Program-made: the position numbers and the translations under genes
Source: an uncultured Candidatus Saccharibacteria bacterium
GTDB taxonomy: Bacteria; Patescibacteriota; Minisyncoccia; Phycocordibacterales; Zambryskibacteraceae
DNA: 61,102 nucleotides
Assembly: GCA_964582295.1 (NCBI GenBank)
Contig: CAZOQP010000002.1
Span: 148,268 to 209,369 of the forward strand
Direction of reading: 5' to 3'
Part shown: one piece after another, positions 159 to 61,102 of the stretch
Position numbering within the stretch: the stretch's first letter is position 1
Layout of the letters: every line of letters starts with the position of its first letter
The notes under the pieces: generated by a model
What the model was told of the DNA's origin: nothing
Database searches by the model: none
What the model saw: the letters and a program-made list of their open reading frames with translations, nothing else

Positions 159-995
159 CTAGAAGACCACCGAAGTGTCGCTCTGTACTTCAAACTCTGC
201 ACTCGCCTCGCTCTCCGTCACAAGCTTATTTTTGAGTATGTTGTGCACGCGTGCCGATATCTCCGCTTGTTCACGTACCGAGAACACTCCCGTGGTGTTG
301 GCGGTCAGTATTTCATCTATATCGTTCCAGATAAGCTCTTCAAGTTCGGATGAAGTTGTGGTTTTTCCAGAGATCATGAAGCCGTACCATGGGAAATCCA
401 CGTCCACCTCCCCTTCAGCATCCACTGTAATGCCTACTGTGTAACTAACAGGTATGAGGGCTGCCAATCTTCCGCGTTCTTTGTATTTGGCTTCAACACT
501 TTCAGCAGTGAACCCCATTTCATCAAGCTTCTGGTCTTCCCGGATCATTCCGGTTACAAATGCCTTAAGATCAATTTCAGAAGAAACTTCGCTTGCCGCC
601 GCAGGCGTGCTTATTTCAACACCCGTGTTAGGTATCCCGACGATACCGCGTGAATCCGCTTCAGCACCCGCCTCGGCTTCAGCTTCCACTTGGGAGCGTG
701 TGACGATTAGATCCATTGCCCCGACAGCAGGAATGGAAACTGCGCTTCCTTGCCCGTTGCCAACACCCGAAATATTGCTTTCAGTGTCGCTTTCAGCCGA
801 CACCTCAGCCGAGGTGTCGGCATTCATATCTGTATCCAGATCGAGGTCCGTCGTCACATTCGTATCCACGTTAAGGTCCGCATCCAGATAATTCTGGGCC
901 AGGCCCACGTATTGAGTAAGAGAAGCCGCCGATGCGCCTATGCTAAAAGAAAGCGCAGCCGCAGGCAGCAATGATAGGAGAAGTATTTTTTTCAT
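159..995 (-). CDS. Secreted acidic low-complexity hypothetical protein
   Basis: 278 aa ORF with signal peptide (MKKILLLSLLPAAALS) and D/E/A/S/T-rich N-half. Confidence 0.8.
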   Translation of the reverse strand: MKKILLLSLLPAAALSFSIGASAASLTQYVGLAQNYLDADLNVDTNVTTDLDLDTDMNADTSAEVSAESDTESNISGVGNGQGSAVSIPAVGAMDLIVTRSQVEAEAEAGAEADSRGIVGIPNTGVEISTPAAASEVSSEIDLKAFVTGMIREDQKLDEMGFTAESVEAKYKERGRLAALIPVSYTVGITVDAEGEVDVDFPWYGFMISGKTTTSSELEELIWNDIDEILTANTTGVFSVREQAEISARVHNILKNKLVTESEASAEFEVQSDTSVVF

Positions 996-26901: not shown

Positions 26902-27080
26902 TGGCGGGCGGTGGAGGAATCGGCGACAGCTCACTAATTCGCCCTGTCCATTTTGGCGGGGCTCATAAGTGGCTCCTGCCCGGGCTCGTCCCGCGTAGCG
27001 GGACTCCGCCTTTCGATTCCTCACCATCCTCGCAACGATGAACCGCTCAAATAGCCCCCGGCTATTCTCGCGGGTCATTG
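26902..27080 (-). mobile_element. tRNA-Trp 3'-anchored mini-element (176-bp repeat spacing)
   Basis: 19-bp direct repeat of the tRNA 3' end (26904-26922 vs 27080-27098) plus an inverted T-arm copy at 27012-27025. Confidence 0.55.
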
Positions 27081-27151
27081 CGGGCGGTGGAGGAATCGAA
27101 CCCCCGACAGCGGATTTGGAGGCCGCAGTTATACCATTTAACTAACCGCCC
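27081..27151 (-). tRNA. tRNA-Trp(CCA)
   Basis: GGGCGGT/ACCGCCC, GCGG-C-CTCCAAA-T-CCGC, GGTTCGATTCC. Confidence 0.93.
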
Positions 27152-39231: not shown

Positions 39232-39391
39232 CAAATTTAACGAAGTGAAATTGTGCAGCGAGAAAGCAAACTGCTTTGCTTTCGTGAGAGGACTTGAAAA
39301 GGTTCTCCTAAATTTTTGAGTCTGCTATTGCGGATGAAAAAATAGGAAACCTGTACTGAAGCTGTAAGATTCAGGATCTCTCCCGCGCACA
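39232..39391 (+). mobile_element. tRNA-Leu 3'-anchored mini-element (158-bp repeat spacing)
   Basis: Inverted T-arm copy GAGAGGACTTGAA (39286-39298) and an 18/22 direct copy of the tRNA 3' end (39370-39391). Confidence 0.55.
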
Positions 39392-60978: not shown

Positions 60979-61050
60979 GGCCCTATCGTCTATCGGTTAG
61001 GACACGAGCTTTTCAAGCTCGGAAGCAGGGTTCGACTCCCTGTAGGGTCA
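60979..61050 (+). tRNA. tRNA-Glu(TTC)
   Basis: GGCCCTA/TAGGGTC, CGAGC-TTTTCAA-GCTCG. Confidence 0.95.
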
Positions 61051-61102
61051 CAAAACGCGAGTTCAAGAAAAGCGCACTGCTGCGCTTTTCTGCGTTTTGT
61101 GA
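61048..61102 (+). mobile_element. Start of a third tRNA 3'-anchored element (truncated by the window)
   Basis: TCACAAAACGC/GCGTTTTGTGA arms around GAAAAGCGCA-CTGC-TGCGCTTTTC; same CTGC-loop hairpin as after tRNA-Leu(TAG). Confidence 0.45.

Follow-up and report, generated by a model that had tools for sequence, protein, structure and literature searches.

For the tRNA-linked repeats of Escherichia coli, Egan and Landy in 1978 and Rudd in 1999 are reportedly the sources. These TLRs are short, gene-less sequences that lie directly behind tRNA or rRNA genes and whose last 18 to 19 bp are a copy of the 3' end of the gene upstream (PMC8144298). Small RNAs are produced by transcriptional read-through from three TLRs of rRNA operons, RrA, RrB and RrF, which lie downstream of a first terminator (Stenum et al. 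2021, PMC8144298), and it has been proposed that the 3' end repeated in TLRs is a signal for processing (PMC8144298).

The element family described here is built around a module of ca. 85 nt that we call M, and it resembles the TLRs in its position behind tRNA genes and in the 17- to 45-nt repeats of the host gene's 3' end that are found in relatives of the element at our locus. A terminal repeat of the TLR type (18 to 19 bp) is present in relatives at loci L006 to L011 and L027, whereas the copy behind tRNA-Glu that is the subject of this work repeats only 7 nt. Unlike the TLRs, to which it shows no sequence relation, the M element has no match in Rfam, and its family combines an inverted copy of the target, a hairpin with a CTGC loop, an 85-nt module with covariation across an entire order and copy numbers of up to at least 15 per genome.

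Patescibacteria have some of the smallest genomes among bacteria. The genome studied here (G000) comprises 568 kb in 7 contigs with 46.6% GC and is about 99% complete. The window, i.e., the whole stretch of 61,102 nucleotides that was analysed, covers positions 148268 to 209369 of contig C2, and this contig has 209,369 bases, so that the end of the window is also the end of the contig.

Results

Close to its edge, the window carries a tRNA-Glu(TTC) gene on the forward strand (60979-61051, called by ARAGORN), whose acceptor strands as read from the sequence are GGCCCTA and TAGGGTC and whose discriminator A is base 61050. Within the last 3 nt of this gene and on the same strand, i.e., directly at its 3' side, begins a long hairpin. 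Its outer stem is formed by an 11-nt segment, X1 (TCACAAAACGC, 61048-61058), that is made up of the final two bases of the acceptor stem, the discriminator and 8 nt of trailer and pairs perfectly with its reverse complement, rc(X1) (GCGTTTTGTGA, 61092-61102), which constitutes the last 11 bases of the window; contig C2 stops at the same base. A 7-nt asymmetric bulge (GAGTTCA, 61059-61065) is placed by RNAfold at the junction between the outer stem and an inner 11-bp hairpin, H (61066-61091), in which the arms AGAAAAGCGCA (61066-61076) and TGCGCTTTTCT (61081-61091) enclose a CTGC tetraloop (61077-61080). RNAfold reproduced the nested outer and inner stems at -29.3 kcal/mol (z = -5.1), and none of 200 dinucleotide shuffles of the hairpin folded equally well. 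The pairing of the tRNA end and trailer with the final bases of the window had been pointed out in a preliminary description of this DNA and holds in full, and the enclosed CTGC hairpin is likewise present, though with an inner stem of 11 bp and not the 10 bp given there. It is the trailer and the final 3 nt of the tRNA that the inverted repeat matches, and not the T arm.

In a scan of the identical copy on contig C5 (see below), H conformed to the consensus of intrinsic terminators, with an 11-bp stem that includes 5 G-C pairs and the tail GCGTTTTGTG, and by this consensus match H and the T-rich arm behind it look like a terminator. The 568-kb genome contains just three perfect CTGC-loop hairpins with a stem of at least 7 bp, namely at the element behind tRNA-Leu(TAG), at the end of C2 and in the duplicate of this end on C5. 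Since the CTGC hairpins of this genome occur only at tRNA-linked elements, H is not a generic terminator form here, and the earlier observation that it is of the same type as the hairpin at tRNA-Leu(TAG) is well founded. A metagenome scan with the 24-nt CTGC hairpin gave no matches.

The final 55 bases of the window (61048-61102, referred to as the 55-mer) are 100% identical to C5:1242-1296 (locus L004). On C5, the 55-mer is preceded by foreign DNA and not by a tRNA, and it is directly followed by M (AGACGGAGTGATGTTCTGCCAGCAGGCAGAACCGCGAGTCGGGGTCTACAACCGAGGCGAGTGACGACGAGCCGAGAGTTGTAGACC, C5:1297-1383), then by ACAAAAAATTG, with ACAAAA at C5:1384-1389, and by tsaD (C5:1437-2600; Pfam TsaD, E = 2e-79). 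M is 87 nt long at this site, GC-rich and composed of two helical domains, and it scores 100.6 bits with our covariance model R1. The stretch C5:1242-1400 folds into three independent domains, i.e., the long hairpin and the two domains of M, at -74.7 kcal/mol (z = -7.2).

The gene order of tRNA-Ser(CGA) on the reverse strand, tRNA-Glu(TTC) on the forward strand and tsaD downstream is kept in G004, a relative from the same genus, and in G006, G009 and G010 from the same family. At this site, G004 is empty, G006 carries a variant of M and G009 has an element of the T-loop type. The orthologous spacer of G006 consists of TCACAAATTGT, the hairpin GTAAAGCGAGTAAA-CTGC-TTTACTCGC, ACAATTTGTGA and the M variant (38 bits with R1) directly before tsaD, and its outer stem of TCACAAATTGT and ACAATTTGTGA differs in sequence from the one described here with complementarity retained. 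Given this synteny and the same hairpin-plus-M layout at the orthologous site of G006, contig C2 probably joins C5, with or without an insert between them.

The preliminary description had considered that the hairpin might be the third member of a tRNA-linked family, and this core idea is borne out by the identical 55-mer that runs straight into M on C5. The proposed layout of tRNA end, hairpin, inverted copy, module and direct copy is also seen behind many tRNAs in relatives. What had been predicted in detail for the bases beyond the window is not what C5 contains: in place of the complement of the T arm expected just past 61102, the 55-mer is followed by AGACGGAGTGATG, the conserved start of M, and not by GGGAGTCGAA, and a degenerate TTCGACTCCCTGTAGGGTCA expected some 100 to 130 bp further on is absent, with just (C)CACAAAA found about 86 to 93 nt further. 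An apparent similarity to GTTGTAGACC belongs to the conserved 3' end of M, which is present whichever tRNA is the host. Neither a T-arm complement nor an inverted copy of the decayed tRNA end described below was found in C5:1-1241 or across the genome. Should both the T-arm complement and the direct repeat be missing, the hairpin was to be regarded as an ordinary terminator; this situation is found nearly to the letter, but the conclusion is wrong because M follows and because the CTGC hairpin is family-specific in this genome. The form that had been predicted is real at tRNA-Glu(TTC) of a related genus, G009, as GGAGAGTCGAA, a module and GACTCCCCGTAGGGTCA. At this site of G009 (contig C12, loci L054 and L062), the module between GGAGAGTCGAA and GACTCCCCGTAGGGTCA is a shorter, M-like one of ca. 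62 nt, and further foreign-looking sequence stands before tsaD, where the IETSCD motif is found twice.

A BLAST search with the C5 stretch against 40 relatives returned a segment of 85 to 88 nt at 77% to 87% identity in several genera. The consensus built from 7 copies of M has two domains with 29 pairs, of which 9 show compensatory changes. When 54 copies were aligned by fitting to the model, pairing was found in 97.2% of cells and double changes in 25 of the 29 pairs, a level reached by 0 of 500 shuffles; sliding the partners by 1 to 3 columns as a control left 29% to 43% paired. Most copies conserve two G.U pairs, which exist solely on the tRNA-sense strand, and the orientation of M is always that of the upstream tRNA, indicating that the conserved structure is one of RNA or is at least strand-specific. 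By its strong covariation, M is a predicted structured RNA motif. A search of Rfam with C5:1150-1500 at E values up to 10 returned just spurious miRNA and snoRNA matches on the palindrome, and inspection of M by eye revealed no hammerhead, HDV-like or group II domain-V motifs.

Within the order, R1 detected M in 204 of 301 sampled genomes and in 132 of 190 genera, with one to at least 15 copies per genome in genomes of 0.5 to 1.3 Mb. Many copies in other assemblies lie within a few hundred bases of contig ends. R1 found no copy over the whole window, and the elements behind tRNA-Trp and tRNA-Leu(TAG) therefore carry other modules. The 55-mer together with M had no BLAST match among phage records. 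None of 54 IMG/VR contigs with a conserved 15-mer of M contains the module by R1, these being chance hits in GC-rich DNA, and a scan of genome contigs with the M 15-mer mostly returned chance matches in GC-rich bacteria and was used just for naming Patescibacteria lineages that have M.

Most copies of M that we examined (28/36) are located 19 to 379 nt behind a tRNA or tmRNA gene on the same strand, and two more lie at contig ends beside a tRNA-like 3' end. The general layout of the family is X1, spacer, rc(X), M and X2, where X1 is the 3' region of the host gene, the spacer is often a hairpin, rc(X) is the inverted copy of X1 and is often split by the CTGC-loop hairpin H, and X2 is a direct copy of X. 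In most cases, X begins in the T loop and covers the remainder of the tRNA, and it may extend into the trailer up to the axis of the palindrome, which is reached by the 43-nt repeat of L027; at L036 and L039, X is instead the terminal part of a protein gene, and at L026 a bare hairpin. The direct repeat after M usually comprises 15 to 45 nt, and rc(X) pairs with the start of X2. Exact complementarity of at least 6 nt was found between the 18-nt flanks of M in 24 of 38 copies compared to 7% of mismatched flank pairs, and in most such copies the 5' strand of the flank stem stops 3 nt short of M and its 3' strand begins with the first base behind the module. Among 40 examined copies, 15 from many genera have a CTGC hairpin at most 70 nt upstream of the module, ending 0 to 17 nt and mostly 10 to 16 nt before M, and 5 more of these 40 copies have a CTAC or CTGT loop in its place.

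At the tRNA-Glu copy, H ends 11 nt before M, and these 11 nt are rc(X1), which abuts M on C5 so that the inverted copy of the host gene stands immediately 5' of the module. Alternatively, TTTTGT(G) of rc(X1) can pair with (C)ACAAAA just after M and close a stem around it, with the same geometry as the flank stems of the family (ending 2 to 3 nt before M and starting at the first nucleotide after it). There is no direct repeat of 15 nt or more after M; (C)CACAAAA amounts to 7 to 8 nt, and a 7-nt repeat is close to chance when taken alone. By this layout, the tRNA-Glu copy belongs to a "short-repeat" subtype of the M-type tRNA-linked element of Paceibacteria-like Patescibacteria in which rc(X) corresponds to the last 3 to 6 nt of the tRNA plus trailer, H lies inside the resulting stem and 5 to 8 nt are repeated after M. 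The short-repeat form is common to L040 (Ala), L045 (Ile), L046 (Val) and L047 (Arg), and L014 (Arg), L015 (Glu-CTC) and the G006 orthologue look like it.

Several other sites show related arrangements. At L030 (G046:C18), three modules of different types stand one after another behind a tmRNA gene. A T-loop-like sequence accompanies every one of them in a separate inverted and a separate direct copy, which points to nested or tandem insertions. The element behind tRNA-Leu(TAG) in the window (39233-39391) and its counterpart L008 in G005 from the same genus share an identical 39-nt CTGC hairpin and T-arm complement; in G005, M and an exact 19-nt repeat follow, and in the present genome an unrelated, AT-rich module of 73 nt and a decayed repeat. 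Modules seem to have been exchanged within one frame at this gene, as judged from the two sequences. Downstream of tRNA-Trp (window 26902-27151) lie an inverted copy of 11 nt and a direct copy of 19 nt of its 3' end, and downstream of tRNA-Ser(GCT) (C1:35250-35339) copies of 18 nt and 15 nt, respectively, both without M by R1. A different small insertion type is found at the tRNA-Ile(GAT) gene of the rRNA operon (C4 ca. 330-485, reverse strand), where an exact 24-nt copy of the T arm and 3' end follows 53 nt on and the two copies are separated by a 50-nt insert with two hairpins. For a comparison of filled and empty sites between this genome and its relatives from the same genus, the flanks were too diverged.

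The DNA that precedes the 55-mer on C5 (C5:1-1241) has 60% to 63% GC (62% for the stretch) compared to 46.6% for the genome. A gene in this stretch, at C5:108-863, encodes a DUF429 (RNase H-like) protein for which 40 relatives have no counterpart; the most similar homologues share about 50% identity, with the few named ones proteobacterial or planctomycete, and the exact protein is on record solely on this one contig. No integrase is encoded in the 1.24 kb of C5 upstream of the 55-mer. The foreign DNA ends in TCCGAGTCCCGGTACGT, a 16/21 match to the 3' end of tRNA-Glu that starts in the T loop, and then the exact 55-mer follows; this is the one boundary of the foreign segment seen in the 1.24 kb assembled. 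Four mismatches in 19 nt compared to none in 55 nt disfavour simple decay and fit a recombination boundary. The most economical reading of these sequences is that a foreign segment bounded by a repeat of ca. 74 nt has been inserted at tRNA-Glu in all or part of the population, and most likely at least 1.2 kb of DNA with 62% GC separates tRNA-Glu from M in some or all cells. Contig C2 breaks because the 55-mer, after the decayed tRNA-Glu 3' end, is duplicated at the edge of this foreign DNA. Within the bacterial family, this may be a hot spot for the entry of foreign DNA, a suggestion drawn from genome comparison. We note that G010 (L049/L060) has a short, GC-richer coding stretch between tRNA-Glu(TTC) and tsaD and that G011 (L052/L061) has GC-rich genes after tRNA-Glu, a less clear case given that the whole region is at about 50% to 60% GC.

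Ten genomes with at least 10 copies of M were compared with ten genomes that have none for four families of potentially mobilising enzymes. Reverse transcriptases (PF00078; 5/10 of the M-rich versus 3/10 of the M-less genomes) and Y1 transposases (PF01797; 7/10 in both sets) showed no association with M, and TnpB (PF07282) and IS110 (PF01548) were each found in 0/10 of either set with control genomes giving matches. Among these four families in the 20 genomes, we thus found no enzyme able to move the M element. Open frames of Y1 enzymes (IS200/RAYT-type, 214 to 293 aa) occur in 14 of the 20 genomes of the order with up to 4 per genome.

Discussion

Taken together, positions 61048-61102 are probably the left arm of a gene-less composite element of ca. 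150 nt behind tRNA-Glu(TTC) whose right part is found on C5 as M and CACAAAA, followed by tsaD. This reading is supported by the hairpin, its exact duplicate joined to M, the covariation of M, the recurrence of the family behind tRNA and tmRNA genes and the conserved spacing from H over rc(X) to M. By analogy with the E. coli TLRs, M would be transcribed from the tRNA promoter via read-through of H and would be released or trimmed from the tRNA transcript by RNA-processing enzymes. On this analogy, co-transcription with the tRNA and processing are most likely for M, but efficient termination at H, if it occurs, would leave M without co-transcription and thus counts against this scenario. The element itself may have arrived through an insertion process by which a part of the target is copied in both orientations, inverted and direct, in which case the copy at tRNA-Glu would have received just a short copy of its target. 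One insertion event may copy the target both ways, given that the repeats of every copy correspond to the gene behind which it lies and that the palindrome axis can be the point where the direct repeat stops; we speculate that snap-back synthesis at the base of the compact fold of M would give both copies.

More ordinary explanations have to be weighed against this left-arm reading. In the simplest of them, the hairpin would be an intrinsic terminator of tRNA-Glu, with A- and T-tracts extending its stem as in bidirectional terminators, and M on C5 would be an unrelated, independent small-RNA gene. The hairpin with GCGTTTTGTG does pass the terminator consensus scan, both the T-arm complement and a long direct repeat are absent, and some copies of M stand after protein genes and their terminators (L012, L013, L036 and L039). 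We nevertheless consider such a coincidence improbable, given that CTGC-loop hairpins are limited to three in the genome, all at tRNA-linked elements, that 15 of 40 copies of M have one within 70 nt upstream, mostly ending 10 to 16 nt before the module, and that the G006 orthologue retains the hairpin-plus-M unit with a different, complementary outer stem. It is also conceivable that contig C5 misleads us: a chimeric join of DNA from a GC-rich organism with this genome would make the contig end biologically meaningless, and the shared stretch is exactly 55 nt long, which would be a common final k-mer size, while the exact DUF429 protein is on record on one contig only. An unrelated organism, however, would not share the family-specific 55-mer, and the similarity goes on to the left of it with mismatches (16/21), unlike in a k-mer chimera. 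On these sequence features, a chimeric join at C5 is unlikely, and an assembly artefact as the whole explanation seems very improbable to us.

The foreign DNA could also be the key to the locus, with the tRNA 3' end plus 55-mer as attL and attR of a GC-rich integrative island and the hairpin as part of its recombination site. The difference in GC content (62% in C5:1-1241 versus 46.6%), a DUF429 gene that is absent from 40 relatives and has nearest homologues of ca. 50% identity, the decayed tRNA-Glu 3' end that begins in the T loop (16/21) and leads into the exact 55-mer, and GC-richer genes directly after tRNA-Glu in G010 and less clearly in G011 all speak for an island. Against it, the available 1.24 kb contain no integrase and the left end of the island is absent from the assembly, and G006 has the hairpin-plus-M unit without an island, which shows that the hairpin predates any island. 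An island would account for the break of the contig and not for the hairpin, and we therefore find it doubtful as an explanation of the latter; it is compatible with the left arm of an M element at this site.

Beyond this left-arm reading, the family could be a new kind of small mobile element without an enzyme of its own in which the 10- to 16-nt segment between H and M is rewritten for each target, or M could be an RNA that is processed by itself or by tRNA enzymes; we hold these possibilities to be rather unlikely, if less so than the alternatives above. As part of a mobile element, M would be an RNA or single-stranded DNA structure recognised by some machinery, and as a processed RNA, its tRNA-like closing stem would be a handle for maturation. 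In that case, the copy at tRNA-Glu would represent a variant that targets the base of a terminator hairpin and not the T loop.

Besides the TLRs, three groups of known systems invite comparison with the M family. Like integrative elements that target the part of tRNA and tmRNA genes between T loop and 3' end, and like the cis-mobilisable elements (CIMEs) that remain of them without an integrase, the family has direct repeats that begin in the T loop and extend over the rest of the tRNA, makes use of tmRNA genes and forms tandem and nested arrays (L030, L041). Unlike these elements, the M unit of ca. 150 nt lacks an integrase and also has an inverted copy of its target, and the same module occurs behind at least 20 tRNA species and the ends of protein genes with repeats matched to each host gene. 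Because the repeats of each copy match its own host gene, a fixed attP cannot explain the family. With MITEs and REP/BIME palindromic repeats, it shares small size, multiple copies, richness in hairpins, the lack of coding capacity and a tendency to break assemblies, whereas the terminal inverted repeats of M elements are local copies of the target and not a conserved element sequence, and their sites of insertion are the 3' ends of structured RNA genes. In contrast to REP/RAYT systems, Y1 genes of the RAYT/IS200 type are no commoner in genomes with M than in those without. A variable, target-complementary segment of ca. 10 to 16 nt between the structured H and M is reminiscent of the omega RNAs of TnpB and IscB and the bridge RNA of IS110; unlike for these, a search of 20 genomes, among them ten with at least 10 copies of M, detected neither TnpB nor IS110, and no similarity to the Rfam models was seen.

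In the searchable literature, we found no description of the M element beyond the papers on E. coli TLRs. The family is thus apparently undescribed, and there is a real chance that its mechanism is new. In practical terms, it is a frequent cause of assembly breaks, and its members mark sites where foreign DNA has entered beside tRNA genes. The family further provides a large comparative data set for the old, unexplained tRNA-linked repeats of E. coli. For the organisms themselves, two thirds of the sampled genomes in an order of Patescibacteria with ultra-small genomes keep an RNA structure of ca. 85 nt that is tied to tRNA genes. The M family may be an unrecognised class of small RNAs that rides on the transcription and processing of tRNAs, or a mobile element that copies its target in an unusual manner, and either reading, if true, would be new biology in a poorly understood phylum.
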